Shown piece after piece: positions 3,605 to 56,181 of a stretch of 64,000 nt of DNA. This DNA comes from an uncultured bacterium (GTDB lineage: Bacteria > Patescibacteriota > Minisyncoccia > Phycocordibacterales > DATDWN01): NCBI GenBank assembly GCA_903861205.1, contig CAIOTC010000020.1:39976-103975 (forward strand), given 5' to 3'. Both the position numbers and the translations under genes were made by a program. The notes under the pieces were generated by a model, which made no database searches, was not told where the DNA came from, and saw only the letters and a list, made by a program, of their open reading frames with translations. Each line of letters opens with the position of its first letter. Within the stretch, counting starts at the first letter, position 1.

Positions 3605-3722
3605 CAAACTCACTTGCATGTGTCATTTTTGGAGCACGGATAAAAGTCTGCTGACTTTTTCCTCAAGCCTCACGCCAGCCGCGCTCCGGAGTCTCCAAAA
3701 ACGACACATGCAAGTGAGTTTG
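3605..3722. repeat. long inverted repeat with about 29-bp arms and about 58-nt spacer between greA and lysS
   Basis: Arms caaactcacttgcatgtgtcatttttggag and ctccaaaaacgacacatgcaagtgagtttg are reverse-complementary with one mismatch. The spacer contains a terminator-like hairpin aaagtcTGCTgacttttt. Confidence 0.6.
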
Positions 3723-3756
3723 TTTAGTCTTTCAAGTTTGGTATACTATATTTATC

Positions 3757-5214
3757 ATGGCTTCACTAGATGAAATTCGTGATGGGAGAATACAGAAATT
3801 AAATTTGTTAAAAGAAAATGGTGTAAATCCATACCCGGCAAAAGTGTCGCGGGATTTTTCAGTGGAAGAAGTCAAAAAAGATTTTGAAAATTTGGAAAAA
3901 TCCGAAAAGGAATTCAGCGTGGCCGGGCGCGTAATGGCTATACGTGGACAAGGCGCTATACTTTTTGCTGTCATTTTTGATGGTACAGAAAAAATTCAAG
4001 CAATCATAAAAAAAGACGAAATTGACGAAAATGTTTTCTCACTTTTTGTCGATACAGTGGACATTGGAGATTTTATTTCTGTCACTGGTACAGCAATGGT
4101 TTCTAAAACTGGTGAGCAGAGCATTTTGCTTAAAAACTGGACAATGGCTTCCAAGTCGCTTTTGCCTTTGCCGGAAAAATTTCACGGTTTGCAGGATGTG
4201 GACGAAAAATATCGCAAGAGATATTTGGATTTGCTCATGGATACCGAAACGCGCGATTTGATGATAAAGAAAAGCAAATTCTGGGACGTTACTCGCCAAT
4301 TTATGAAAGACGAAGGATTTTTGGAAGTGGAAACACCGACACTCGAAACGACGACTGGCGGAGCCGAAGCAGAGCCGTTCAAAACGCACCACAATGACTA
4401 CGATTTGGATGTATTTTTGCGCATTTCCGTCGGTGAGTTGTGGCAGAAAAGGCTGATGGCCGCTGGTTTTCCGAAAACTTTTGAGATTGGCAGAATTTAT
4501 CGAAACGAGGGTTCATCGCCGGAGCATTTGCAGGAATTCACAAACATGGAATTTTATTGGGGCTACGCTGACTACCGCGATGGCATGGAATTGGTCAAAA
4601 AAATGTACAGAAAAATTGCCCTGGAAGTTTTTGGCAAAACGGAATTCACTACGCGCGGACACACTTTTGATTTGGCCAAGGAATGGGATTTGATTGATTA
4701 CGTTGATGAAATAAAAAAGCAGGTGGGGATTGATGTCACGAAAGCGTCCACGAAAGAAATGGCGGAAAAACTTGATGAGCTTGGTGTAAAATATGATGGC
4801 GAAAACAGCGAGCGACTGACCGACTCGCTTTGGAAATATTGCCGCAAAAACATCTCCGGCCCGGCTTTTCTCGTCAATCATCCTGTGCTGATGGCTCCGC
4901 TCGCCAAATTGAATTCTGACGGAAAAACTGTGCAAGAATTTCAACCAATCATTGCCGGAAGCGAAATGGGCCGGGGGTATTCGGAGCTGAACGATCCAAT
5001 CGACCAAAAAGCACGCTTTGAAGAACAGCAAAAATTGATTGATTCCGGCGACAAGGAAGCCATGATGCCCGACTGGGAATTTGTCGAAATGCTCGAACAC
5101 GGTATACCACCAACCTGCGGTTTCGGTTTCGGTGAACGCTTTTTCGCTTTCCTGGCCGACCGCCCGGCACGCGAGTTGCAGTTATTTCCTTTGATGAGAC
5201 CTAAAGAAAAATAG
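3757..5214 (+). CDS. lysS: lysine--tRNA ligase (class II)
   Basis: 485 aa with an N-terminal OB anticodon-binding domain and class II motifs (FEIGRIYRNEG, ...GFGFGERF). Confidence 0.9.
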   Translation: MASLDEIRDGRIQKLNLLKENGVNPYPAKVSRDFSVEEVKKDFENLEKSEKEFSVAGRVMAIRGQGAILFAVIFDGTEKIQAIIKKDEIDENVFSLFVDTVDIGDFISVTGTAMVSKTGEQSILLKNWTMASKSLLPLPEKFHGLQDVDEKYRKRYLDLLMDTETRDLMIKKSKFWDVTRQFMKDEGFLEVETPTLETTTGGAEAEPFKTHHNDYDLDVFLRISVGELWQKRLMAAGFPKTFEIGRIYRNEGSSPEHLQEFTNMEFYWGYADYRDGMELVKKMYRKIALEVFGKTEFTTRGHTFDLAKEWDLIDYVDEIKKQVGIDVTKASTKEMAEKLDELGVKYDGENSERLTDSLWKYCRKNISGPAFLVNHPVLMAPLAKLNSDGKTVQEFQPIIAGSEMGRGYSELNDPIDQKARFEEQQKLIDSGDKEAMMPDWEFVEMLEHGIPPTCGFGFGERFFAFLADRPARELQLFPLMRPKEK

Positions 5215-31755: not shown

Positions 31756-34086
31756 ATGCAGACGAAGACGGTTTTTCGGTTCTTTGTCATTGCGTTTTTT
31801 GCGTTTGCCGCCTTGCCCTTGTTTGGGCAGGTGGTGTACGAAGAAATTCAGATGCCAGTCAACTCCCTTGTGGGAAGCGTTGGAGTGGATGACTCGAATA
31901 ACTTCTGGATGTCGGGTGTTCAAAGCTTGAATGGTTCCGGATCCGGCAGATTGATTTTCGAGTTGGATCCAACCAAAACCATGGCTTCTTTTCTGGGATT
32001 TGCCGACGGGTACAATTCAAGGAAGCAAGCTGGGGCGACATACGTTTTCTACAATTCTTTTCCGCCCAAAGGGCCTCAAAATTTGTTCGGACAGAATGTG
32101 GATTCTTTGTCGCTTGTAACAACTCCGACCAGCTGGGTGTACGTTGGCCATTACATGGTGAACGTGTACCAAGCGGTTAACGGAGGCGTGAATCTTGTCT
32201 GTTCGGATTACACAATAGACGGAAATCCGAACCAGAAACCCACAGATCTTGTTGCCGGACCGTTCTCGAATACGGACGGGAGTTATTTTCTGTCTGGATT
32301 TGTGAATGCAACTCCGAAACTTTTCCAGCTCGGGGCACAAGGATCCGGCGGGCAATGCGATCTCAAAACCGTTCTGACGAGCGATCACCAGATCATCCAG
32401 GCCTACAGGCTTGGAACGGACATTTTGGTTGAAGAGTTGGCAACACCGACTCCAAACTCGCTCAATCTTCTGACGGAAATCGCGGTTTCCGCCAAAGGCG
32501 GTCCGCTGACCGTTTTGCTCGGACCCGTAGGGGACAACAATCCGCAGATCTTGACCGGCAGGAGCTCTGTTGACCTTTCGGTCGATCAGAAAACCAAAAC
32601 GGCCGTGATCACATATGCCGACAACACTGGCTTACACGCCATGTTGTGGCCTTCAATGCGCGAGTTTTACTCCAGCGCAAACGATCAGTCGGCGACCAAA
32701 CTGGCAACCGAGATTCGGGGGGTGTATTTTAATCCTCCATACATGATTCTCGGTGGCAACCCTGTCAATATAGGATTCCAGAGTAGCAAGGTTATTTTGG
32801 CGAACACCGATACTGGTGCAACATACCCTGTAATTGACAGCTCGACGGTGATTGACGGACTCAATGCCAAACTGTTTCCGTACAGCGTTTTTGCAGTCAC
32901 ATCAACCGGTTTTGTGGATTTTGTTGTGTATAATTCAAATTATCCAACTGATCCACATATACACACCTTTCGAGCCCAGATCCCTGGTGTCTCCCAATTC
33001 CCACCGACGACAGTCAGCAGCTTCACCGCCGACAACCTGTCGGTCACGGAAGGCGACGCTGTCACACTCGCTTGGAACACGACAAATGCCAACTCGGTCT
33101 CGATCGACAACGGCGTCGGCTCGGTTTCTGTTTCGGGGACGGCGCAAGTTGTTGTCAGCGGGACGACCACGTTCACTTTGACGGCTACTGGCTATGGCGG
33201 ATCTGCCACGGCCACGGTGACTGTCACGGCAACGCCGCGCAAACCGGCCATCAGCAAATTCTCTCTTTCCACGGGCGAAGCAACATCAACCGTGGCCCAG
33301 GGCAGCGTGCTGAGTGTGCTCGGAACGAACATGTGTGGACTGGTGACGGACATCACGTACGAAGTCGAGATCATTGCCACCATCCGACCATTGCCGTACT
33401 CAATCGGCGGTTGCCGGATGAGAATCACCGACGCAAGTGGCAACACCAGCTACCTGCCGATGAAATTCGGCATCACCTTCGCCACATCCACTCCGCCGCA
33501 TCAGTCGCAATCCAACGGGCAGATTCCGTGGAGTCAGACTCCCGGTGTTTACCAGTTGGTTGTCGAAAATCGCAATTGGGCCACCGACGCCTACGTGAGC
33601 GAGACGGATCCCGTTTCGATCACTGTGGTTCCGGTCAACCCTTCGCTCAACCGCGCAAATGACGGCACGAGCGATCCGCCGCTTGACATGACCGACGGAT
33701 CCGGCGCATCTGTCACGCCGAAAAATCCCGCCCAGCCCGGCGGAATGTTCCTTGCAAAGGGAACCGGCTTCGGCCAACCGACTGTGCCTCTTCCCGCCGG
33801 TATGGCGCCAGCAGATATTCACCTCTCCGACTGGGACAACATCCAGTCGCCGGCTGAAATCTGGGCGTATGTTTCGGAGGGCGGCAACTGGAACATGCAC
33901 CAACTGCCGATTCAACTCGCGGTCATGGACCCGAGCGACATCGGCACGCAGATTGTTGTGTTCGCCGTTCCGGACGATGTTAATCCGGACGCCGGCCAGC
34001 AAAACGCTTTCATGTTTTTCAAAATGGCAGACGGGACGACAACCCCGATCAAAGGGTTCCCGCTGTCGCCAAAGGTGGTGAAATGA
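31756..34086 (+). CDS. large secreted protein (776 aa), Gly/Thr/Ser-rich beta-domain protein with an Ig-like domain
   Basis: Signal peptide MQTKTVFRFFVIAFFAFAALPLFGQVV. Ig-like segment PTTVSSFTADNLSVTEGDAVTLAWNTTNANSVSID...TATGYGG. Confidence 0.7.
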   Translation: MQTKTVFRFFVIAFFAFAALPLFGQVVYEEIQMPVNSLVGSVGVDDSNNFWMSGVQSLNGSGSGRLIFELDPTKTMASFLGFADGYNSRKQAGATYVFYNSFPPKGPQNLFGQNVDSLSLVTTPTSWVYVGHYMVNVYQAVNGGVNLVCSDYTIDGNPNQKPTDLVAGPFSNTDGSYFLSGFVNATPKLFQLGAQGSGGQCDLKTVLTSDHQIIQAYRLGTDILVEELATPTPNSLNLLTEIAVSAKGGPLTVLLGPVGDNNPQILTGRSSVDLSVDQKTKTAVITYADNTGLHAMLWPSMREFYSSANDQSATKLATEIRGVYFNPPYMILGGNPVNIGFQSSKVILANTDTGATYPVIDSSTVIDGLNAKLFPYSVFAVTSTGFVDFVVYNSNYPTDPHIHTFRAQIPGVSQFPPTTVSSFTADNLSVTEGDAVTLAWNTTNANSVSIDNGVGSVSVSGTAQVVVSGTTTFTLTATGYGGSATATVTVTATPRKPAISKFSLSTGEATSTVAQGSVLSVLGTNMCGLVTDITYEVEIIATIRPLPYSIGGCRMRITDASGNTSYLPMKFGITFATSTPPHQSQSNGQIPWSQTPGVYQLVVENRNWATDAYVSETDPVSITVVPVNPSLNRANDGTSDPPLDMTDGSGASVTPKNPAQPGGMFLAKGTGFGQPTVPLPAGMAPADIHLSDWDNIQSPAEIWAYVSEGGNWNMHQLPIQLAVMDPSDIGTQIVVFAVPDDVNPDAGQQNAFMFFKMADGTTTPIKGFPLSPKVVK

Positions 34087-34156
34087 GCCAGCTACCCTGC
34101 TTCGTTCTCACCAATTGTACTTTCGCCAAGGAGCTTCACTCCCCGGCATTAAGAAA

Positions 34157-34196
34157 CCGGCCACCGCCTCTCACGAGACGCTGGCCGGATTTTTTG
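34157..34196 (+). terminator. rho-independent terminator after the 776-aa protein gene
   Basis: ccggcca...tggccgg followed by attttttg. Confidence 0.6.
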
Positions 34197-34225: not shown

Positions 34226-34885
34226 TTATTTTGAATTTATATATTTAACGAATTCTTTTTCCATTATTTCTATATTACTGCCAAATATTTTTTCAAAATT
34301 TTTGCTGAAATTGTCATAGAAGTAGTTTTTTTCCAAGGTAAATATGAGTTCACGAACTTTTTCAATGGAAAATTCTTTAACTAGAAAACTGACAAACATC
34401 TGAGAAATTTTGTAGGCGTAATAGTTTGAGTTTTCATCCCAACACCTCGGAGTTCCAAGTTTCTTTAAAAATTTTTCCTCAATATATATATATTCATCAG
34501 AAATATTGAATCCAGCGACAAAAGAAGAAAATCCTTCATTTAGCCACTTTGGTATTTTATGTCCACCAGAAAGAATATCTAAGAATACGTGTGAGATTTC
34601 GTGTTTTAATATCGAAAGGAATTCATTTTTTTCGTGAGTGCTTTCTTTTGCCATGCAGTCTGGATGCAAAATATCGATATCACCTGAATAAGATGCATTT
34701 GCAACTTCCCATTCAAGAGTTATTCTTTTTAATTTGTTCTCGAAATCCTTTCTTGATTTATGCACAGTAATGTTTATACTTTCTGGTTTTTTATCAAAAA
34801 ATTTCTCCGCTTCTTGATAAGCAGTAGATGCCATTTTTTCTATTTCATTATAATCTTTACCTTTGTAGACTATATTTATTTTCAT
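34226..34885 (-). CDS. HExxH zinc metallopeptidase (gluzincin-like: HEISH...NEGFSSF), candidate leader peptidase of the adjacent RiPP-like cluster
   Basis: 219 aa with HEISHVF and a downstream NEG glutamate ligand. Very AT-rich. Lies 65 nt downstream of the precursor-peptide gene on the same strand. Confidence 0.6.
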   Translation of the reverse strand: MKINIVYKGKDYNEIEKMASTAYQEAEKFFDKKPESINITVHKSRKDFENKLKRITLEWEVANASYSGDIDILHPDCMAKESTHEKNEFLSILKHEISHVFLDILSGGHKIPKWLNEGFSSFVAGFNISDEYIYIEEKFLKKLGTPRCWDENSNYYAYKISQMFVSFLVKEFSIEKVRELIFTLEKNYFYDNFSKNFEKIFGSNIEIMEKEFVKYINSK

Positions 34886-34902
34886 AAAATTAAATTATCG
34901 CT

Positions 34903-34942
34903 AAAAAATAAGGCGAGAGAGTCTAGCTAGAACCCTCTCGCC
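34903..34942 (-). terminator. terminator/attenuator hairpin between the precursor-peptide gene and the metallopeptidase gene (minus strand)
   Basis: On the minus strand: ggcgagaggg-ttctagctagac-tctctcgcc followed by ttatttttt. Confidence 0.55.
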
Positions 34943-34949
34943 TCGTCGG

Positions 34950-35102
34950 CTACTTGTTGCACTTGTTGTCACATGATTGGCAGTTGACGCACTGGCAACT
35001 GCCGCCGGAAGTGAGTCCGATCGAGTTGACAAGCTCGGCAGACTGCTGAGAGCGGTTGATAACCTCGGCAGAGTTCACAAAAAACTTCTTTGTGTTTTGC
35101 AC
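34950..35102 (-). CDS. RiPP precursor peptide, 50 aa: MQNTKKFFVNSAEVINRSQQSAELVNSIGLTSGG|SCQCVNCQSCDNKCNK (double-Gly leader plus Cys-rich core; SCIFF/ranthipeptide-like)
   Basis: Not in the ORF track because it is under 60 aa. GTG start 8 nt after AAAGGAGGA. Lies 18 nt downstream of the radical-SAM gene stop. A terminator hairpin follows the stop. Five Cys in the last 16 residues after a Gly-Gly. Confidence 0.55.
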   Translation of the reverse strand: MQNTKKFFVNSAEVINRSQQSAELVNSIGLTSGGSCQCVNCQSCDNKCNK

Positions 35103-35120
35103 GGATACTATCCTCCTTTC

Positions 35121-36428
35121 CTATTTAAGGATAACTCCGCTGTTAAAAAGTGTCAATACGACCTCAATAATATCACTGGCGTCTAAACCAGTTTCCTCTG
35201 TAATTTCAGCTGAGGAAAAGGTTCTTTTTTGGACCATAAGACGAACAAGTTGAAAACCATCGTGCGTCAAAAATTGGACACTAGTTCCAACATAGGCGAT
35301 TCCGCCAAAACTTTCCTCTCGCAATCTGGTGAGGGAATTTATTTCAACGCGTTCTTCCAACAAGATTTTTCCAAATTGTTTTTTCCGATTGGGCAACTTC
35401 GCCACTCTTTTTGGGTTGAATATGGGCAAAGACATGTACATATCTTTACCATTATAACTACCGTTTGTTGTTTTTGATGACATACGACAACCACCTTCGC
35501 ATATTGTCGTAGCTGAACAATTTATACACTCTGTCGGAAGCATTGATTCCTCCGACCACGGACTCATATTTGTCCAAATGGCGGAAAAATCTTCTTGAAA
35601 AACGTTACCGAATGATTTGTCGGCATGTATGCATGGCCTGACCATTCCAGTTGAGGAAATGGCGCATGATGTTGTGGCCGCGGAACATATTCTGTTGCCA
35701 AAAAAGGATAAAAAATCATCCTCATCGTTTTCATTAAATAAGCATCTGGCTATGGGTTCCAGCGTGTCGACGCTTATTCTGAAAGTTTGTTCTACCAAAA
35801 GAAGATTTCTCAGCGCAGATTTGCATTCTTCACCACTCAAAACAAAAGGTAAGTTTGACTCATGCGATGGAACCATTGGGGTTGCACAGAAAGTTTTTAC
35901 TCCTAGATTGTTAACAAGTTTGCCTACCTCAAACACTTCACTAAGGTTGAGCTTGGAAACGACCATATTTGTAGCTACCAATATACCCGCTTTAACCAAT
36001 TTTTCTATTCCTTTTAATGTTTGCGGGAATCCACTTTTAGTTCCTGTTATGAAATTGTGCGTTTCTTCTTTCCCGAGTATAGAACATAGAACATGATCAA
36101 GACCTTCATCTTTTAGTTGCTGAGCGGCGTCCGAAGTGACTAAGGACGCGTTGGTGTTTAGCCCAATTTCCATCCCATATTCTTTGGCTTTTCTGAGTGT
36201 CGGAAACAACACACCTGGTCTCAAAAGCGGTTCGCCGCCAGTGAGGGTAATGGCACTAACGCCATATTTTGCCAGAGTATCAATAACTCTCAAAAAATCT
36301 GTGGAGTTCAATTCTTGTTTGTCGCTTTTTGTGTCGTACCTCCAGTAGTTGTAACAATGTCTACATCTAAAATTACAACTCTCGGTCAATTCAAGTTGAA
36401 CATCGACAGGACCGGATAAGCGTTTCAT
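35121..36428 (-). CDS. radical SAM/SPASM-domain peptide-modifying enzyme with a C-terminal PqqD-like (RRE-like) extension
   Basis: CNFRCRHC (Cx3Cx2C), GGEPLL, Cys-rich SPASM region (CSAATTSCAISSTGMVRPC, CINCSATTICEGGC) and a C-terminal tail ...ITEETGLDASDIIEVVLTLFNSGVIL. Confidence 0.85.
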   Translation of the reverse strand: MKRLSGPVDVQLELTESCNFRCRHCYNYWRYDTKSDKQELNSTDFLRVIDTLAKYGVSAITLTGGEPLLRPGVLFPTLRKAKEYGMEIGLNTNASLVTSDAAQQLKDEGLDHVLCSILGKEETHNFITGTKSGFPQTLKGIEKLVKAGILVATNMVVSKLNLSEVFEVGKLVNNLGVKTFCATPMVPSHESNLPFVLSGEECKSALRNLLLVEQTFRISVDTLEPIARCLFNENDEDDFLSFFGNRICSAATTSCAISSTGMVRPCIHADKSFGNVFQEDFSAIWTNMSPWSEESMLPTECINCSATTICEGGCRMSSKTTNGSYNGKDMYMSLPIFNPKRVAKLPNRKKQFGKILLEERVEINSLTRLREESFGGIAYVGTSVQFLTHDGFQLVRLMVQKRTFSSAEITEETGLDASDIIEVVLTLFNSGVILK

Positions 36429-36537
36429 CTCGTCTCCTTTTAAGCCAAATGGCTTGCAGATACCAGTTTTTCAATGTACTTTTTCTAAGACAAGAATACT
36501 GAGTGGTAGATCTTTTGTCAAGCACTAATTTTTTGAA

Positions 36538-36609
36538 GAAAAAACTTATGCACAAAAGTTGTGTGGCGGCTATTGCCACACATTTCCGCAACGTAGTATA
36601 ATTAAAGTT
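36538..36609 (+). promoter_or_regulatory. conserved promoter cassette B: aaaaacttatgcacaaaagttgt ... tttccgcaacgtagTATAATtaaagtt, 7 nt before the ATG
   Basis: About 80% identical to cassette A. The -10 lies 7 nt from the start codon at 36610, implying a leaderless transcript. Confidence 0.6.
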
Positions 36610-38997
36610 ATGGACAGATCATTAAAAGTTTACGCGAAATGTTTTTTTGTTTTTACTTTGCTGTTTGTTGTTTCTTTCGGTTTGTTTGGCCAAGTCGCGC
36701 ATGCTCAGCTTCTCAACCCGCAACCGCCGTCTTGGACTTGGCCACCGTGTTCAACATGGAGTGGAACGAATGGCGGGTCATGCAATTATCCCTATCCTGG
36801 CAGTGGTTGTCAAGGATCCGTCTCCACAGTTTATTGTCCGATTTGTGACAGTTACCAGGGGTACACCAACGATTGTCCTAATCCGGGTGGAAATCTTTGC
36901 AATGACGGATCTGGCGGTGCAAACATATGCCAAAAAGATGGTGGCGGTTGCGGATGCGTCAAAACGTGGTCCGGCAACCAGTGCACTGATCCGGACGACG
37001 CTTGCTACGGCGAAGCCACTTGTTGCAACGGCTCATCTTGCAACAACAATGGCATCTGCGATGCCAACGAAACCACCTCTTCCTGCCCGCAGGGCTGCCA
37101 AGTCGGCCCGCAATTCAGATTTGACGTGAACAACTCACAAACTATAAATTATGGGGGCACCGCCGCTTACCAAATCCACGTCTACAATGATTCCAGCAAA
37201 AATAGTTTGAATTACAACATAACCTATTCCGGTCTGCCTTCATCCGCTTCCATCAGCTGGGGCTGGAGCGGGCAGAGCTACGCTTTGAGTTCGACGGACG
37301 GTGATAATTCCGACACAATCAGTTTGATGACCGTTGGCGGTCCGATCATGCCCGGCACGTACAACCTCACCATTACCGTTACCGGCACAACCAACGGCAT
37401 TTCAGTTCCGCAAACAAAATCTGCCGTTCTCATCGTCAGCCCCGCCAACTTCGCCCAGTGCAACGGTTTGTGGCACAACGCTCCGCTATCCGCCGCCTCG
37501 CCGGTACAGCCGGTCGGTTTGTACACTACTGTCAGTGGAAATCAAAACACCGTCAACTTGGTCTGGACCGGCACGGACAACGCCGTTTACCAACTTGGTT
37601 GCCGATTCTTCGGAGGCTCGTCATGCGCTTGGGACAGCTCAGTTTTCAAAATAGTTCCTAACGCCAACTATTCCGCTCCATTTTGGACAACGACTTCCGC
37701 TCCAAACATTTATCAAGACACCAGTTTCAAAGTGGCTTTTCTCAACTCAGGTGATGGCAAGAGATATTATAATTATATTTATTCGTCTTATGACGGCTTT
37801 TACGTCTGGCTGACACCGGACAATTCCGGCGCCACAGGCTACGGCACGCCAACGAACACCACCGACAGTCAAGGCAAACCGTGGAATTTTCAACGGCTCT
37901 CCGACAACACGGTGCAATACGAATGCGGCGTGCCTCTCACTCCAACCGGTTTCTGGGCCGGAGCCGGCACTTGCGGAACGGGACAAATCAATTTGTCGTG
38001 GAGCGCTTCGTACGGAGCAACAAGCTACACCGTGAAGGACGGAGCCAGGACGGTTTACAGCGGATCGGCTCTTGCCGTTTCCGACACCGGTCTTGTTGCG
38101 GGTTCCAATCACACCTACACGATCACCGCGACAGACGCTTCCGGCACTTCTGCTTCCGGTCCGACAACTCCGGCCACGACGGTCGCGCCAAGCTCATGCA
38201 CTCCGGTTCCGGTGACCACTTTCACCGCCTCGCCGACGTCCGGACCGGCGCCACTTTCCACAACGCTCTCATGGTCGGCCACGAACGGCGCCACTGGTTG
38301 CACGGCATCGTCCAATCCGGTCAACGCCAATTGGAACGGAGCAAAAACTCTGGCGCAATCACCGCAAACCATTTCCGGTTTGGCCGCCGGTTCCTACACA
38401 TTCAGTTTGTATTGCACGAACGCCACAGGTAATTCAACCACTGTTAGTCCCGTTGTCACGGTTGGTCCGGCGCTTCCGACGATCACGTCCTTTGTGGCAA
38501 ATCCACTGACCGGAACTTCGCCGCTATCCACGACTTTGACATGGGCATCATCGGGCGCCACAAGTTGTACCGCAAGCGGAGGATGGAGCGGTTCAAAAGC
38601 CACATCAAATGCAATCGGTGAAGTTGTGAGTGGATTAACTGTTCCAACAACTTTCAATCTGGTTTGCACAAATGCTTCTGGAAATAGTCCCCAATCTCAG
38701 GTTATAGTCACTCCTACAGCACCAAATTACACCCTAACTGTCAGCGTTACGACATCCCAGGGTGGTTATGTCACTGGTGCAGGAATAGATTGTGGTTCAT
38801 CAGGACACCCAACATGCACAGCGACATATCCTCAAGGTACTCCTGTCATTTTGACTCCAACACCTGTCGGCAACTGGAAATTCATCGGCTGGACAGGAGC
38901 GTGTACCGGCTCGGGCGCTTGCTCATTCAATGTGAACAGCAACTTGTCAGTTACCGCGCTATTTGTCCCGCGACCGATTAATTACCAGGAGTTCTAG
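36610..38997 (+). CDS. secreted Cys-rich protein with five tandem Fn3/Ig-like repeats and a C-terminal InlB B-repeat-like domain (795 aa)
   Basis: Signal peptide MDRSLKVYAKCFFVFTLLFVVSFGLFGQVAHA. About 25 Cys in the first 130 mature residues. About 90-aa repeats (..SPTSGPAPLSTTLSWSATNGATGCTAS.. / ..NPLTGTSPLSTTLTWASSGATSCTAS..). C-terminal GYVTGAGIDCG...GNWKFIGWTGACTGSGACSFNV. Start chosen at 36610 rather than the track start 36559. Confidence 0.7.
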   Translation: MDRSLKVYAKCFFVFTLLFVVSFGLFGQVAHAQLLNPQPPSWTWPPCSTWSGTNGGSCNYPYPGSGCQGSVSTVYCPICDSYQGYTNDCPNPGGNLCNDGSGGANICQKDGGGCGCVKTWSGNQCTDPDDACYGEATCCNGSSCNNNGICDANETTSSCPQGCQVGPQFRFDVNNSQTINYGGTAAYQIHVYNDSSKNSLNYNITYSGLPSSASISWGWSGQSYALSSTDGDNSDTISLMTVGGPIMPGTYNLTITVTGTTNGISVPQTKSAVLIVSPANFAQCNGLWHNAPLSAASPVQPVGLYTTVSGNQNTVNLVWTGTDNAVYQLGCRFFGGSSCAWDSSVFKIVPNANYSAPFWTTTSAPNIYQDTSFKVAFLNSGDGKRYYNYIYSSYDGFYVWLTPDNSGATGYGTPTNTTDSQGKPWNFQRLSDNTVQYECGVPLTPTGFWAGAGTCGTGQINLSWSASYGATSYTVKDGARTVYSGSALAVSDTGLVAGSNHTYTITATDASGTSASGPTTPATTVAPSSCTPVPVTTFTASPTSGPAPLSTTLSWSATNGATGCTASSNPVNANWNGAKTLAQSPQTISGLAAGSYTFSLYCTNATGNSTTVSPVVTVGPALPTITSFVANPLTGTSPLSTTLTWASSGATSCTASGGWSGSKATSNAIGEVVSGLTVPTTFNLVCTNASGNSPQSQVIVTPTAPNYTLTVSVTTSQGGYVTGAGIDCGSSGHPTCTATYPQGTPVILTPTPVGNWKFIGWTGACTGSGACSFNVNSNLSVTALFVPRPINYQEF

Positions 38998-39033
38998 GAT
39001 GTAACAGCTGTCTTGGTGGTTACATATTAGTTT

Positions 39034-39068
39034 TAGGCTACCTGTTCAACACTGGTAGCCTATTTTAT
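39034..39068 (+). terminator. rho-independent terminator after the Cys-rich protein gene
   Basis: aggctacc...ggtagcct followed by tattttat. Confidence 0.55.
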
Positions 39069-39195
39069 AAAATATTATTTAATTTGGCTCTCCTTTTTAT
39101 ACTTACATTTTTTACTGATATTCTGATATGGCACAAATGGTTGTCTATGGACTTATTTTTAAATGTAAATCTAACTAACTAGTATCGAATTAAAG

Positions 39196-39726
39196 TTATT
39201 TTGTTGTATCCAAATCTGATTCACGAATGTAATCAATTCTCTGACCATTTATATAGTATGAAGCATTCAATGAATCTTGAATGTAACCATTTGAAAGTGA
39301 AATATAAAAGTATAGATAAGCAATTAAAGATTTATTTCCTTGTTCATCTTGTAAGATTAAATAATTTACCCCTTTAGTTCCACTATCAATAGCAGATAAA
39401 CCATATTGAGCATTATTCAAAGCACCTATAACGGAAAATTTTGTTGAAGTAGAAACTGGTTTATATATAAAACGATTCGGATAATATGTATCAAGACTTT
39501 TATCTGTGACTATTTCTCTCCCTATCGTCTTAAATGTTTTTGTTCCTGCTTGTTGTACACCAATTTGGTAATACATTTGATTATCAAAAACTACTTGAGC
39601 TCCTTCTAAAATTTTAGGAATTGGAATTTGTGTTTCTCTTTCACCCCCGATAATAGTACTTGCAATGAAAAATAATACAAGAATTACTAATATTATACTG
39701 ATATTTTTTTTATTAATTATTTTCAT
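39196..39726 (-). CDS. membrane-anchored hypothetical protein (176 aa), strongly AT-rich
   Basis: N-terminal TM helix ISIILVILVLFFIASTIIGG. Codon usage shifted toward AT relative to its neighbours. Confidence 0.45.
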   Translation of the reverse strand: MKIINKKNISIILVILVLFFIASTIIGGERETQIPIPKILEGAQVVFDNQMYYQIGVQQAGTKTFKTIGREIVTDKSLDTYYPNRFIYKPVSTSTKFSVIGALNNAQYGLSAIDSGTKGVNYLILQDEQGNKSLIAYLYFYISLSNGYIQDSLNASYYINGQRIDYIRESDLDTTK

Positions 39727-39927
39727 CTCCTATATCATACCAGTAAACTTATAAAAATCCAATGTACCGTTGACTTTTTCTAAAAAATGATATAGCTTAT
39801 AATTAGATTCTACACCATAGGTACACACGAAAGTCTACTACCCATGTTGTTTCTGTTCTTTGAAAGAAACAGCGTGGAAAGTGGACTTGGTAGTGTATTG
39901 TATAGGTGAATCTCCAAAAGGAGTGGT

Positions 39928-41997
39928 ATGAAAACCATTCTAAATTTCACGGTAGTTTTTCTGCTTCTGGTTCTGTCCAGTGGCATACTCATCAACAACG
40001 CAAACGCTCAAACGGTTTGTCCGCAAGGAAAGTCCTGCGCTGTGTTCATTTGGGTCAACGGAATTGCAGTAAAAAATTCGGCTGATTGGGATACAACAGT
40101 CAACGACGTTAGAACCAAGTTTTTTAACGCTAATTCCGATATCGACCAAGCTTACATCAAGTTCGATCCTGCCTACAACCAAAGCTTCGGTATGTTAAAG
40201 GACATTTTCGGCCAGTCAATCTTCCAGTGGGACCAGCAGTTCACTGACAGTTTTCTGGCTAACTCTTCGGTCTTGCAAAATAGTTCGGTGAACAATATTT
40301 TGCTGGCATATGCTCTCTGGAACTATTCCTTTGACGCGAAGAGGTTCACAACAGATTTAATCGCGATTGGAGACAAAATTCATTCGTGGCAAAATCTCGG
40401 TTACCGAGTCGTCCTGGTTGGTCACAGTCAGGGTTCGTTTTTAACGAACGAAGCTTACACTGTCAGAATCAGAGAGGCAGTCGCCGACAAAAGCATTGCT
40501 CTGCCAGACGCAAACTTATTGTCAGTTGTAAATATTGCGAGTTCTGCCAATAATGTCGCTGATGGGCGGAACAAATACACCACCCAGTGCAATGACATTA
40601 TCCTGGTTGTTCCAAAAGTACTTCCGGGAAATGTGAACGACCCGACTGCTCCGTGCACTCCATTTTTGATGCCTCCACCCCCCGTCAGTATTTTGGCCGG
40701 AGTCCTTGATGCAATAGCTGCAACAGTGGATATAGCAAAGTTGTGGCACGGATATAACGTACACCAACTTTCGACCTACACGGCCGACAAATCTGCAACA
40801 CAAAAGCAAATCTTCGCGCATTTGGTTGACTCGCTTCCAGATCCGGGTTGTGCAGGTAACGAAAATTGTTATCTCCACGATACATACAGTCCAACCTTGA
40901 ACTACAAGGACAACTGGATTGTGACGAAAAAATCCGGTAACTCGCTTGAACCTTTGCGAGCTTCGGGGTGTTTGACTCTAAGTTCGCTCAGCGGTTTTCC
41001 AACTTTTCTCGACCCGGGGCAAATCACTCTCCGAACTCGCCGAGTTTTTACCGGTTTGTTTTGGGGATCCTTGCGATTTCGAAGTCGAGGAGCGGGAAAG
41101 TCTATCGTCAGTTTCAAAAAAGCGTCGGATGATTCTGTCGCGGCGTCTATTACAGCCGACAGCACTAAAGATTTTGGCGAAAACTGGAGGCAGATGTTCT
41201 TTGGTTGGAAAGACGATAACCTAACGATTTCGTCGTTAGGTCCTCTTCCTGTAAAAACTGCGTTCAATCAAGCAGAGGGTTACTATCTCGAGCTCGATTC
41301 TCAAGGTGACAACACGTTAGAGGTTAAAGATTTGGATGTGTCCAGAGTGAGGAACACGGAATTAAGCGATCCTACTTTGCCACCTCCGGCACCTTCTCCA
41401 CCTACTCCGTCTTCACCCTCACCCCCGCCTTCACCTCCTCCACCACCACCCGTACCTCTCACTGGTTCTTGCTCGCTAAACGGAGGACAAAATCCGGTTA
41501 CAATGCAAGTTAGTGGCACCGCGTATTTCAATGCTTCCTTCTCGGGCGGTACTGGTGCAATTCACTTTTCGTGGACTGGTGCTACTGGAGGTGATGCATC
41601 TAGTGCCTCGCAAGTTTACAACACTTCCGGAACATACACCGCTTCGGTCAAGTTGACCGACTCCGGTTCGCCGCAACAGCAAGTGATAGCAACATGCCCG
41701 CAGGTGACAGTGTCAAATCCCGCTCCACCGCCGCCAGTTGCCTTGTCCTACGTTTGCAGTATTTCACCGCCCACCATCAAATTGGGGTCGAGCGCGTCGT
41801 TTGCAGTTAGTGTTTATGGTGGCTATCCGCCATACACTTTCTACATGCCGGGCGCAGTGTTTTACCGAGCGCCGAACACCCAGATCTCAACCATTCCACC
41901 ACCACTTAGCGTCGGTGTGCAGACCTACTCGGGTTTTGTCCAGGATAGTCAAGGTAAAGTGACATATCCAACCTGCTCCGTCACGGTGACAAATTGA
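39928..41997 (+). CDS. secreted lipase-like alpha/beta hydrolase (GHSQGS) with a Pro-rich linker and a C-terminal beta domain; paralogue A
   Basis: Signal peptide MKTILNFTVVFLLLVLSSGIL. VVLVGHSQGS nucleophile elbow. PPPAPSPPTPSSPSPPPSPPPPPPVP linker. C-terminal domain homologous to that of 48009..50801. Confidence 0.7.
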   Translation: MKTILNFTVVFLLLVLSSGILINNANAQTVCPQGKSCAVFIWVNGIAVKNSADWDTTVNDVRTKFFNANSDIDQAYIKFDPAYNQSFGMLKDIFGQSIFQWDQQFTDSFLANSSVLQNSSVNNILLAYALWNYSFDAKRFTTDLIAIGDKIHSWQNLGYRVVLVGHSQGSFLTNEAYTVRIREAVADKSIALPDANLLSVVNIASSANNVADGRNKYTTQCNDIILVVPKVLPGNVNDPTAPCTPFLMPPPPVSILAGVLDAIAATVDIAKLWHGYNVHQLSTYTADKSATQKQIFAHLVDSLPDPGCAGNENCYLHDTYSPTLNYKDNWIVTKKSGNSLEPLRASGCLTLSSLSGFPTFLDPGQITLRTRRVFTGLFWGSLRFRSRGAGKSIVSFKKASDDSVAASITADSTKDFGENWRQMFFGWKDDNLTISSLGPLPVKTAFNQAEGYYLELDSQGDNTLEVKDLDVSRVRNTELSDPTLPPPAPSPPTPSSPSPPPSPPPPPPVPLTGSCSLNGGQNPVTMQVSGTAYFNASFSGGTGAIHFSWTGATGGDASSASQVYNTSGTYTASVKLTDSGSPQQQVIATCPQVTVSNPAPPPPVALSYVCSISPPTIKLGSSASFAVSVYGGYPPYTFYMPGAVFYRAPNTQISTIPPPLSVGVQTYSGFVQDSQGKVTYPTCSVTVTN

Positions 41998-52864: not shown

Positions 52865-53566
52865 ATGATAACGATTTTTACCCTAAACTTATGGAGATAT
52901 TATGATTTTGATTTGAGGTTGTCAAACATTGAAAAGGTAATCAAAAATAAAAGTCCTGACATTATTTTCTTGCAAGAGGTTCAAATAGACACTACCTTAT
53001 CTTTTTTTTCACAAGTTGAAATCATAAAAAAATTATTGCCGGAATATGAATATTCAATTCATTCCACAATCTATCCTAAAGAATTTCAAAGAGGAAAAAA
53101 ATTAGAGACACCTGTGCAGCATGGAATGGCGGTTATTTCAAAATATCCAGTCGTAAATTCATTTGAATATTTTTTGAAAAAAGAAAAAGATGAGTCAGAG
53201 CCAAGATCAATTCTTTGTTTTGATTTAAAAATAAAATCAAGAATATATTATTTTGCGAATATTCATTTTACCAACAAGGAAGAATCTGCCAAAAATGAAT
53301 TAGTCGAATTTTTGAATTTTATTCACTCACGCGGAGAAAAAAGAATTATGGCTGGAGACTTTAATATGTTTAACTTACCGAAATATTCCAATTTGTTTAA
53401 TGGCTATAAATTATCATATAATTATAAACCATATATATCGTACACAAAAGATAATGGGTGTTTGGATTATATAATGATACCTGATAATTTTAACTTCACA
53501 CATCTTGAGTTAGTGGAGGAATATCTTTCTGATCATAAGGGTTTATTTGTAAATCTGGATGATTAA
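52865..53566 (+). CDS. endonuclease/exonuclease/phosphatase (EEP) family protein
   Basis: IIFLQEVQ and MAGDFNM motifs, C-terminal SDHKG. Confidence 0.6.
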   Translation: MITIFTLNLWRYYDFDLRLSNIEKVIKNKSPDIIFLQEVQIDTTLSFFSQVEIIKKLLPEYEYSIHSTIYPKEFQRGKKLETPVQHGMAVISKYPVVNSFEYFLKKEKDESEPRSILCFDLKIKSRIYYFANIHFTNKEESAKNELVEFLNFIHSRGEKRIMAGDFNMFNLPKYSNLFNGYKLSYNYKPYISYTKDNGCLDYIMIPDNFNFTHLELVEEYLSDHKGLFVNLDD

Positions 53567-53586
53567 AATCATACTGAATAAATTTT

Positions 53587-54543
53587 ATGAAAATATTTGT
53601 CACTGGAGGAAGTGGATTTATTGGCAGGAGATTGGTTGAGAAATTATCTCAAAACAAAGATGACCAGATTTTTTGTCTAACTAGGGATTTATCAAAAATT
53701 TCTATTTCAACTGCGGAAAATGTTCAATATTTGGAAGGGGATATTACTAAACCGGAAACATATAAAAATTTTCTATATGGATCAGATCGTCTTTATCATT
53801 TAGCCGCGTATGTTGGCTATGGTATTTATGGAAGAGACAAAAAAGAGATGGGGAAAATTAATATTGACGGAACGAAAATCATTTTTGATATTGCGAAACA
53901 ATTTAAAATTCCAAAAATTTTGTATTTAAGTACCGCAATGGTTTATCATCCAATGGGAGAAAAAATTGTTGTTGAAACTGACAATTTTCCAAAAAAACAC
54001 ACAACTCATTACTCCTATACTAAATATCTTAGTTTTTTGGAAGCGCAAAAGTATATTAAAATAGGACTTCCAATAACTGTTATTTTACCTACATCAGTTT
54101 ATGGATATGGCAGCCCGCTTTTTAGTGATTTTGTGAAATTTCTATTAAAATACAAAGTTTTCTTTAAAAGCTTACTCGATAAAAGACTATCTGTTGTTTA
54201 TGTTAACGATGTTGTAGATGCTATTCTATTGGCTGAAAAAGGTGATTATGTCGGAGAATCTTTTATTGTTTCTTCTGAAATAATAACTATCAGAGATTTT
54301 ATAAAACAAGTTGAAATTTATTTTAAAATCGAGGTAAAAATTTATAATTTGCCAATTTTCATATTAAAATTATTTTCTCCAGTGATAGGTTTTATTTCCA
54401 GATTTAAAAAAGGTTTGTATATTAACAAAGAAATATTTAATTTTATAAATGGGAATTTCATTGCTTCAGGAGAAAAAGTAAAAAATAAGTTAGAATGGAA
54501 ACCAAAAACATCTATTTATAATAAATTTGAAGAGATGATCTAA
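53587..54543 (+). CDS. NAD-dependent epimerase/dehydratase family protein
   Basis: Rossmann motif MKIFVTGGSGFIGRRL and a YxxxK-type catalytic region. Confidence 0.75.
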   Translation: MKIFVTGGSGFIGRRLVEKLSQNKDDQIFCLTRDLSKISISTAENVQYLEGDITKPETYKNFLYGSDRLYHLAAYVGYGIYGRDKKEMGKINIDGTKIIFDIAKQFKIPKILYLSTAMVYHPMGEKIVVETDNFPKKHTTHYSYTKYLSFLEAQKYIKIGLPITVILPTSVYGYGSPLFSDFVKFLLKYKVFFKSLLDKRLSVVYVNDVVDAILLAEKGDYVGESFIVSSEIITIRDFIKQVEIYFKIEVKIYNLPIFILKLFSPVIGFISRFKKGLYINKEIFNFINGNFIASGEKVKNKLEWKPKTSIYNKFEEMI

Positions 54544-54597
54544 AATTTGTTCACAATTCCAATATGTTTTTATCATTTGACTTGATATAATGTAGAC

Positions 54598-56181
54598 ATG
54601 CTTAATTTGTTCATGTTATCAAATGTATTTCTTTCGGTCACCTCAATTTTTTTAGCTGTATTTGTATTCTTTAAAAATAGAAGGTCAAAACTAAATTATT
54701 TATGGGCGTTGACAAGTCTTGGTGTTGCCACATGGAGTTTCGGTATTTCCAGAATTGTCATTTCAGAAAGTGTAAAAGAAGCGTGGCTTTGGAATTATTT
54801 TTTGTATATGGGTGCTATTTTCATACCAATTTTTTTCTACCATTTTACACTTGTTTTATTAAAAAAAGAGAAAAGCAAAAAATTCTCTTTGATCGTCGGA
54901 TATTTATTATGTCTAGCCTTTCAAATTCTAAATTACACAAAATATTTTGTTAAAGATGTTCCTCCCAAATTTATGTTTAACCATTGGGTTGAACCAGGGG
55001 AAATATACTATTTCTTTTTTGCTTTTTTTGTTGGTTATTTTTTGTATTCATTAGTTTTATTGTTCAGACATTCTTTAAATCGATCAAATCCGGACAGAAA
55101 TCAAATAAAATACATTTTGATAGGAAGTATTATCGGAGTAAGCGGCGGAATTACAAATTTTTTCCCACAATTTTTTAATATTTACCCATTTGGAAATTAT
55201 TTGATAATACTGTACGTCTTTTTTGTTACTTATTCGATATTGAAATATCAATTATTCAATATTAAATCTCTCGCTACTGAATTATTTACTATCGCTATTT
55301 CACTGGTTCTCTTTACGAGAATATTCTTTGCAGATAATTTAACTGAAAAATTAGTAAATGTAATTGTTCTTGTGGCAGTATTTGTTTTTGGGGTTTTAAT
55401 TGTTCGTTCTGTTATGAGAGAAGTCAAGACCAGAGAAGAAAAGGAAAATCTTGCCAAAGATCTTGAGCGGGCGAATGATCGGTTGAAGGAGTTGGATCAG
55501 ATGAAGTCGGAGTTTTTGTCGTTGGCGACTCACCAAATACGGGCGCCGTTGACCGCTATTCGGGGATATGCGGCCAATGTGATGGATGGTGATTATGGGG
55601 AGATTTCGCCGAAAGTTCGCGGGGCGATCCAGGTCATTGCCACTTCGTGCACCAACTTGGTCGTTATTGTCGACGAGTTTCTGAACATTTCGCGCATCGA
55701 GCAGGGTCGGATGAAATACGACGTGGTGGATTTCGACGCGACCGCTTTGATCCAGGAAATTTTGATCGAGCTCAAACCAACAATCGAAAAAACATCGCTC
55801 ACAATGAATTTGGAACTGTCGGATTATATTTGCATGGCGCACGGTGATGTTGGCAAAATAAAACAGGTTGTGAACAACATCATCGACAACTCCATAAAAT
55901 ATACCAAGCAGGGCGGTATCAATGTTTCGCTGTCGTGCAACGGCCAATATATTACGATAAAAATTTCCGACACCGGCATTGGCATCGCGCCGGAAGACAT
56001 CCCGAAACTTTTCACCAAATTTACCCGAGCCAAGGACGCTTTCCGCACCAACGTCATCGGCACCGGTCTCGGCCTTTACATAGCCAAGCAAATGGTGGAA
56101 GCGCAAGACGGCAAAATTTGGGTCGAATCGGATGGGCTGGGCAAAGGCTCGACATTCTTCATTCAGTTACCGAAAGCTTAA
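54598..56181 (+). CDS. sensor histidine kinase (polytopic N-terminal sensor domain; HisKA plus HATPase_c), orphan
   Basis: About 7 TM helices, H-box ATHQIRAPLTAIRGYA, N, G1 and G2 boxes (..GTGLGLYIAKQMVEAQDGKIWVESDG..). No response regulator adjacent. Confidence 0.8.
   Translation: MLNLFMLSNVFLSVTSIFLAVFVFFKNRRSKLNYLWALTSLGVATWSFGISRIVISESVKEAWLWNYFLYMGAIFIPIFFYHFTLVLLKKEKSKKFSLIVGYLLCLAFQILNYTKYFVKDVPPKFMFNHWVEPGEIYYFFFAFFVGYFLYSLVLLFRHSLNRSNPDRNQIKYILIGSIIGVSGGITNFFPQFFNIYPFGNYLIILYVFFVTYSILKYQLFNIKSLATELFTIAISLVLFTRIFFADNLTEKLVNVIVLVAVFVFGVLIVRSVMREVKTREEKENLAKDLERANDRLKELDQMKSEFLSLATHQIRAPLTAIRGYAANVMDGDYGEISPKVRGAIQVIATSCTNLVVIVDEFLNISRIEQGRMKYDVVDFDATALIQEILIELKPTIEKTSLTMNLELSDYICMAHGDVGKIKQVVNNIIDNSIKYTKQGGINVSLSCNGQYITIKISDTGIGIAPEDIPKLFTKFTRAKDAFRTNVIGTGLGLYIAKQMVEAQDGKIWVESDGLGKGSTFFIQLPKA

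Follow-up and report, generated by a model that had tools for sequence, protein, structure and literature searches.

Ranthipeptides such as freyrasin (matured by PapB), NxxcA (by NxxcB) and the SCIFF peptides (by CteB) are peptides that are synthesized ribosomally and modified after translation (RiPPs), in which a radical S-adenosylmethionine (SAM) enzyme with a SPASM domain and a RiPP recognition element (RRE) acts on a short precursor with a Cys- and Asp/Asn-rich C-terminal core. Their acceptor residues include Asp and Asn, as in the Cys-Asp links of freyrasin and the Cys-Asn links of NxxcA (PMC8326336). Related SPASM enzymes serve the sactipeptides (SkfB, AlbA and StsB) and pyrroloquinoline quinone (PQQ), where PqqE works on a peptide together with the RRE protein PqqD and a zinc peptidase, and no dedicated exporter is involved. 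In class III/IV lanthipeptides, leader removal by zinc peptidases of the M1 type is well established, and the review describing it mentions no such leader peptidases for sactipeptides or ranthipeptides (PMC10885120). For Patescibacteria, also called the candidate phyla radiation (CPR), reduced genomes with few or no biosynthetic gene clusters are usually reported (e.g. PMC11613949). Here we analyzed a 64,000-nucleotide stretch of contig CAIOTC010000020.1 from an uncultured bacterium (hereafter the window), which holds a cassette of about 2.2 kb on its minus strand: three co-directional open reading frames (ORFs), spaced 18 nt and then 64 nt, for a radical SAM/SPASM enzyme, a Cys-rich peptide of 50 amino acids (aa) and a small zinc peptidase (Table 1). 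An earlier reading of the letters (the original prediction) had placed three minus-strand ORFs here, and all were present when the window was re-read. We consider it quite probable that they form a compact RiPP operon of a Patescibacteria-type genome, in which the enzyme modifies the Cys-rich peptide and the peptidase trims its leader.

The order enzyme, peptide, HExxH peptidase was kept in all 14 main-clade loci that we compared, with enzymes 42-70% identical and differing genes outside the cassette. At each of these loci an ORF of 48-60 aa begins within a few dozen nucleotides of the enzyme stop, and a AAAGGAGG-type ribosome-binding site (RBS) stands at the matching position in 13 of the 14. 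The peptides share the leader consensus [FY]F[VIL]xxxx[VI][IV]NR (FFVxxxEVINR in the window) and, behind a variable linker, the core consensus C-x(1,2)-C-x2-C-x2-C-x-N-x(1,2)-C-N-[KR], at which the protein ends. Across the eight cores that align without gaps, five Cys, one Val and two Asn residues were invariant, each with at least two synonymous codons in use, and the pairwise codon differences comprised 178 synonymous versus 94 non-synonymous changes; over the clade, the Val is not conserved. Since the ORF is present at 14 of 14 loci and synonymous codons vary at its invariant residues, it lies beyond chance, indicating that the 50-aa ORF is a real gene under purifying selection. The core has no conserved aromatic residue and no Tyr, and the peptide has no Glu/Tyr pair.

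The original prediction had singled out this Cys-rich ORF as an uncalled gene, and its retention at all 14 homologous loci bears that out. The exact window peptide is not in the protein collection that we searched, and it was therefore not reported by any gene caller represented there. Among 1.84 billion representatives searched exhaustively with phmmer, five called peptide relatives with the same motifs were recovered, and a word-indexed homology search with the 50-aa peptide gave no match. The top match of the peptide search, a repetitive protein of 3820 aa (P0133) aligned in the leader region only, was rejected as spurious. No NCBIfam family was found for the peptide at E ≤ 0.1, and at E ≤ 1 two relatives were likewise unmatched, as were five peptides from sister clades. 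Two traits first ascribed to the peptide were not retained: the leader described as Lys-rich has two Lys residues, and the supposed double-glycine site is not fixed, the residues before the first Cys being GG, RG, AG, SG, NG, GY, QS, AS, NS or SK. A promoter-like TTGACA-17-TATCCT about 25 nt before the peptide start (35128..35156, minus strand) was also rejected, as it occurs at 5 of 14 loci and overlaps conserved coding sequence; similar matches stand at the same offset, inside the 3' end of the enzyme gene, in the window and in loci L003, L007, L014 and L015.

The enzyme was recognized by Pfam in two domains, Radical_SAM (PF04055; 87.7 bits, cut-off 29.5, E 1.2e-24) and SPASM (PF13186; 27.4 bits, cut-off 21.5, E 4.2e-6), in agreement with the Cx3Cx2C motif and the Cys-rich SPASM domain that had been proposed, and Fer4_12 was matched as well. 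Cysteines C229, C248, C266, C301, C304, C310 and C314 were invariant in 71 aligned homologues, and their spacing (C248-x12-G-x4-C266, then C301-x2-C304-x5-C310-x3-C314) follows the SPASM membership pattern that we applied, Cx9-15Gx4C ... Cx2Cx5Cx3C. The usual final (eighth) SPASM Cys ligand is missing, with no Cys beyond C314 in the window enzyme, and in the same alignment D329, nearly invariant, stands at about the distance of the absent residue. As judged from the alignment, the SPASM ligand set is a variant one, as in some SPASM enzymes. A cluster of PqqE is ligated by Asp, and the missing last Cys together with the conserved Asp is reminiscent of it.

By sequence, the closest solved proteins in the PDB were PqqE (6.5e-18) and SkfB (4.4e-17). 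The AlphaFold2 model of the enzyme (predicted local distance difference test, pLDDT, 94) placed SkfB first in the Foldseek ranking of PDB entries (1.2e-18), followed by SuiB, PqqE and then the anaerobic sulfatase-maturating enzyme (anSME), and EpeE was also among the structural neighbours. Sequence and model together indicate a SPASM enzyme that resembles the peptide maturases and belongs to a family not yet curated. A check on whether the enzyme would group with the anSMEs came out in favour of a peptide maturase, its nearest solved relatives being the maturases SkfB, SuiB and PqqE. An anSME identity was rejected: anSME models, like those of the SCIFF maturase, were not among the best 25 of 96 NCBIfam matches, anSME ranks below SkfB, SuiB and PqqE by fold, and the peptide lacks (C/S)xPxR, the motif of anSME substrates. 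Among ten flanking proteins scanned, including four with no Pfam match, none had a sulfatase-type domain. The window enzyme itself is in the protein collection, where a fragment of 214 aa stands for its 90% cluster, which is why no identical enzyme appeared among the homology-search matches.

The C-terminal tail of the enzyme, called RRE-like in the original prediction, does match known RREs in fold. Modelled alone (pLDDT 92), it forms a beta-sheet followed by three helices, and its best Foldseek matches were RREs, namely TfuB1 with leader, MccB, PqqD, McbB, TbiB1, PbtF, CteB and SuiB; like known RREs, it is a winged helix with a three-stranded sheet and three helices. The window tail had no match to Pfam PqqD (PF05402) at E ≤ 10, PqqD was matched by none of the 33 tails of relatives that were scanned, and the last 90 or so residues gave weak generic winged-helix matches in Pfam and weak winged helix-turn-helix matches in a PDB profile search, nothing specific. 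Because the sequence searches of the tail were uninformative in this way, the assignment rests on fold comparison; the modelled tail has an RRE fold, and it would bind the leader. The domains run radical SAM, SPASM and RRE last, with no N-terminal domain, as the radical-SAM motif starts at residue 18. In the PDB alignments, the offsets place the extra domain of SkfB, SuiB and TigE at the N-terminus, and CteB and PapB carry an N-terminal RRE, at the opposite end from the window enzyme.

The third gene had been predicted to encode an HExxH metallopeptidase, and alignment of 25 sequences upheld this, with H95, E96 and H99 invariant and WLxEG (E117) nearly so, giving the pattern HExxH-x17-E. An HExxH ORF of about 220-260 aa is linked to the cassette in 14 of 14 main-clade loci, and most peptidase homologues carry a precomputed PF13485 match. 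The window peptidase fell below all NCBIfam cut-offs, and its profile matched in the PDB only the active-site stretch of M1 aminopeptidases. No signal-like or hydrophobic segment was seen in its N-terminus (MKINIVYKGKDY...). These features point to a small, cytoplasmic-looking gluzincin (clan MA(E)), presumed by analogy to be the leader peptidase. In class III/IV lanthipeptides, the AplP-like M1 leader peptidases have HExxH...E and a WLNEG-type motif in common with it, as well as the proposed leader removal (PMC10885120); unlike them, the cassette peptidase, whose activity is predicted, is about 220 aa long, has no M1 N- or C-terminal domains, is encoded within the cluster and belongs to a radical-SAM RiPP system. 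An identical peptidase (P0121), on a contig of 231,850 bp, was matched in the homology search.

Between the peptide and peptidase genes lies a G+C-rich hairpin of 14 bp (34944..34910) followed by ATTTTTT, with a folding energy of -23.1 kcal/mol and a z score of -2.8 against shuffled sequences. Hairpins of 9-17 bp with a T-run follow the peptide stop within about 10-35 nt in 13 of the 14 loci, and their stems are unrelated between clades. Because position and shape are conserved and the sequence is not, the function of the hairpin is well supported, and the terminator that the original prediction had drawn between these two genes has its equivalent at nearly every locus. This conserved predicted terminator supports a high ratio of peptide to downstream gene product. 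A second G+C-rich hairpin behind the peptidase gene is probably the end of the operon.

Compared with the described systems, the cassette shares with the ranthipeptides the SPASM maturase and RRE, the short precursor and the composition of the core, whose invariant N-x(1,2)-C is similar to NxxC in NxxcA (PMC8326336). Unlike theirs, its RRE is C-terminal rather than N-terminal, a small gluzincin is linked, the hosts are Patescibacteria rather than Firmicutes, the precursor falls in no curated family and the maturase scores far under the PapB cut-off; the chemistry here is predicted from the genes. The kinship with SCIFF suggested at first had to be given up, given that the precursor matches no NCBIfam family, no maturase model among the best 25 NCBIfam matches came near its cut-off and the RRE sits at the opposite end (the SCIFF models are TIGR03973 for the precursor and TIGR03974 for the maturase). 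Among the sactipeptide synthases, SkfB is the enzyme's best structural and second-best PDB sequence match and has the same SPASM/Twitch fold class, with thioether formation in the window enzyme presumed; the cassette departs from these synthases in its domain order and in a far more Cys-dense core. The PQQ system, whose PqqE is the best PDB sequence match, shares with it a peptide, a SPASM enzyme, an RRE, a zinc peptidase and the lack of a dedicated exporter, whereas the cassette peptide has no Glu/Tyr pair and the RRE is fused to the enzyme C-terminus. No PqqB/PqqC-type domain was found in the genes neighbouring the cassette. The enzyme reached 92.4 bits with PqqE (TIGR02109; cut-off 381) and 85.7 bits with StsB (cut-off 625) in NCBIfam, and by the membership criteria tested the cassette falls outside SCIFF, PapB, SkfB/StsB, PqqE and anSME. 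It would work like a ranthipeptide/sactipeptide system with the parts list of a PQQ-type system, and belongs to a known peptide class and to no curated family. Our literature searches on radical SAM, ranthipeptides or SPASM in Patescibacteria/CPR turned up no description of the family.

In the mechanism that we propose, the 50-aa precursor would be made in excess, through a strong RBS and a terminator that may let only some transcripts reach the peptidase gene. Its leader FFVxxxEVINR would dock on the C-terminal RRE, whereupon the enzyme would reductively cleave SAM and abstract a hydrogen in the Cys-rich C-terminal core. Cys sulfurs would be joined to carbons of neighbouring residues in thioether rings of the ranthipeptide or sactipeptide type, the best acceptor candidates being the D/N/Q positions and the invariant Asn that precedes the last Cys by 2-3 residues. 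The signal-less small gluzincin would remove the leader intracellularly. By analogy, the chemistry is most likely thioether crosslinking, to which we give about an even chance. It is favoured because the substrates are rich in Cys and in Asp/Asn/Gln/Glu, which include the freyrasin and NxxcA acceptors, and because a motif similar to NxxC, the invariant N-x(1,2)-C, lies close to the C-terminus. Aromatic C-C crosslinks of the streptide, PQQ and triceptide types are disfavoured because the core has no conserved aromatic residue.

Several observations weigh against reading the cassette as a thioether RiPP operon. Among the best 25 of its 96 NCBIfam matches the enzyme lay below every equivalog cut-off; its top scores, about 127 bits against 500, went to the tetrapyrrole enzymes AhbD (127.6 bits, cut-off 500) and NirJ, and it reached only 80 bits with SkfB (cut-off 300) and 74.5 bits with PapB (cut-off 340). 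The window peptidase scored 29.8 bits with Pfam Peptidase_MA_2 (cut-off 32.4), and no exporter or immunity gene was linked to the cassette at the loci examined. The NCBIfam ranking would suit a SPASM enzyme outside RiPP biosynthesis, whether a sulfatase maturase or a tetrapyrrole enzyme like AhbD or NirJ, beside an incidental small ORF. However, the AhbD and NirJ scores are a quarter of their cut-offs, tetrapyrrole and sulfatase genes are not adjacent in the Pfam scan of the flanking proteins, an RRE domain is part of the enzyme, and the small ORF has an RBS and is retained under purifying selection, so this explanation is already contradicted and we give it hardly any weight. A RiPP cluster with another SPASM reaction deserves more attention, be it epimerization as by EpeE, a Cys-to-formylglycine-like oxidation as by anSME or an unprecedented crosslink, with the Cys residues engaged in disulfides or metal binding. 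SPASM enzymes perform several chemistries, anSME and EpeE are structural neighbours of the enzyme, and no thioether-maturase NCBIfam model was reached; five Cys in a 15-residue core leave few acceptor positions, and the second auxiliary cluster, with only three Cys ligands visible and none past C314, departs from the canonical motif. But the Cys-rich and Asp/Asn-rich composition, a signature of thioether substrates (PMC8326336), recurs in the peptides of the superfamily, the anSME substrate motif does not occur in the peptide, and the core Val is not conserved across the clade. An alternative SPASM reaction is the less likely course for this RiPP cluster, though one worth keeping in mind.

As to the product, one possibility, held tentatively and compatible with the thioether chemistry, is that it stays in or on the cell as a conserved molecule, whether a cofactor derived from the peptide, a metal-binding peptide or a signal, and is not a secreted antibiotic. 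The conserved three-gene module has no transporter, immunity gene or signal peptide, the N-terminus of the peptidase is not hydrophobic, the core is almost invariant although enzyme identity falls to 42%, and the strict C-terminal ending ...CN(K/R) is retained; PQQ and mycofactocin among cofactors and SCIFF in signalling offer parallels, and the same case has been put forward for SCIFFs (PMC8326336). On the other hand, an exporter could lie at another site (an EamA-type transporter near the L003 cluster is not conserved), and a spread as patchy as 24 related loci in 185,579 species genomes, with about 13 of the loci in the main clade, is unlike that of an essential cofactor. A bacteriocin-like peptide whose double-glycine leader would be removed by a peptidase-containing ATP-binding cassette transporter (PCAT), which would also export it, appears very unlikely: the window peptide does have GG two residues before its first Cys, and in most relatives the core follows small residues, but GG is not conserved among them, a C39 peptidase/ABC transporter was found in no locus examined, the linked peptidase is a gluzincin and not C39, and such core conservation is atypical of bacteriocins. 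A classical bacteriocin is disfavoured by the cytoplasmic look of the peptidase, the near-invariant core and the lack of a linked exporter or immunity gene. The antimicrobial role that the original prediction had allowed for loses ground, as a near-invariant core across enzymes 42-70% identical argues against an arms race, and we favour a conserved physiological role as a signal, a metal/redox peptide or a cofactor-like product.

The enzyme homology search gave 331 matches with a top identity of 70%, and the named homologues were mostly labelled Patescibacteria, Paceibacter, Taylorbacteria or Pacebacteria, in line with the CPR host first proposed; it is on these labels that we base the CPR assignment. 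A metagenome scan with very general radical-SAM patterns returned mostly distant relatives and two new main-clade loci. Sister-clade enzymes (27-37% identical) have equal length and the same C-terminal domain, and different peptide families lie downstream of them, such as ...EVFAEVSLFG...GDCSCFNCDGNPCVK and ...GFETIL...NYCPDCYDCDYNCEECDNN, with others rich in Cys and Asp. A Cys-rich small ORF lay immediately 3' of 35 of the 50 non-redundant enzyme genes, versus 61 of 1086 (5.6%) small ORFs elsewhere in the same loci. Sister clades with distinct leader motifs and Cys/Asp-rich C-terminal cores are seen at L018-L023, L028, L033-L053 and L062, and an HExxH ORF also occurs at the sister-clade loci L034, L044, L045 and L052. 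Some genomes hold two or three enzyme-peptide pairs side by side (L001/L002, L005). Directly upstream of the homologous cassette at L001/L002 (1985-3517) stands a radical SAM/SPASM paralogue (439 aa, with the same CxHCYNYW motif) that has its own Cys/Asp-rich peptide (...SPSCDCDPCDCDASDCTCNCNG), and another called ORF of 54 aa lies at 3673-3837; at L005/L006 (6213-7907), a 55-aa ORF, a 365-aa radical SAM gene and a 47-aa ORF past the peptidase may be a third pair. One enzyme homologue, P0014 (660 aa), has about 220 residues past its RRE with a second SPASM-like series CGGCG...CINC...CGGGC, which may be a fusion or a merged gene call.

The surroundings of the cassette are chromosomal, with no obvious mobile element. 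Housekeeping neighbours (UvrC, Ddl, YceG and a Mur ligase) were identified in the Pfam scan of ten flanking proteins mentioned above, and on both sides the opposite strand encodes large proteins without Pfam matches, whose N-termini, as judged by eye, are hydrophobic and signal-like. Two genes flanking the cassette, 31756..34086 and 36559..38997 on the plus strand, encode 776 and 812 aa with hydrophobic N-termini, Gly/Thr/Ser-rich repeats and almost no Pfam match, and reach up to 60% G+C versus about 43% for the window. Positions 39001..40000 and 53001..55000 are strongly A+T-rich (27-30% G+C), unlike the rest of the window. Within the 64 kb, no second CxxxCxxC enzyme or credible Cys-rich peptide gene was found.

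Table 1 Features of the cassette in the window (position 1 is the first letter of the 64,000-nucleotide stretch).
Feature	Coordinates	Strand	Details and basis
Candidate promoter 5' of enzyme gene	36493..36521	-	TTGACA-17-TATTCT; consensus scan
Radical SAM/SPASM enzyme gene	36428..35121	-	435 aa, ATG start
Cx3Cx2C radical-SAM motif, C18/C22/C25	36354..36377	-	Direct reading; invariant in 71 homologues
SPASM auxiliary-cluster region, seven invariant Cys	35487..35744	-	Alignment of 71 homologues; Pfam SPASM
RRE (PqqD-like winged-helix) domain, residues ~355-435	35124..35366	-	Fold comparison
Ribosome-binding site GAAAGGAGGA	35120..35111	-	8 nt before GTG; direct reading
Precursor peptide gene	35102..34950	-	50 aa, GTG start
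Leader motif FFVNSAEVINRS, residues 7-18, presumed RRE-binding segment	35049..35084	-	Alignment
Core CQCVNCQSCDNKCNK, residues 36-50, C-terminal end	34953..34997	-	Conserved pattern
Terminator-like hairpin and T-run in precursor/peptidase gap	34900..34944	-	Fold; conserved position
Metallopeptidase gene	34885..34226	-	219 aa, ATG start
Zinc-binding HEISH (residues 95-99) to E117 of WLNEG	34535..34603	-	Alignment of 25 sequences
G+C-rich hairpin then UUUCUU after peptidase gene	34153..34186	-	94-nt fold, -33.7 kcal/mol, z -3.3

If the product is merely another thioether peptide, the cassette would be a routine result of genome mining and no surprise in kind to a RiPP specialist. On a broader and rather speculative view, to which we assign a low probability, it may be one branch of a large, mostly patescibacterial superfamily of SPASM enzymes with a C-terminal RRE and Cys-rich peptides, whose near-invariant products would be, instead of antibiotics, conserved molecules of ultra-small episymbionts (a peptide-derived redox/metal cofactor or a host-interaction signal), perhaps with a crosslink or chemistry not yet described. 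As a small cassette it offers a tractable entry to CPR chemistry, to the unusual order of SPASM then RRE, and to a minimal gluzincin as leader peptidase. Strong purifying selection across metagenome-assembled genomes labelled Paceibacteria, Saccharibacteria and Parcubacteria suggests that the product matters to its hosts.

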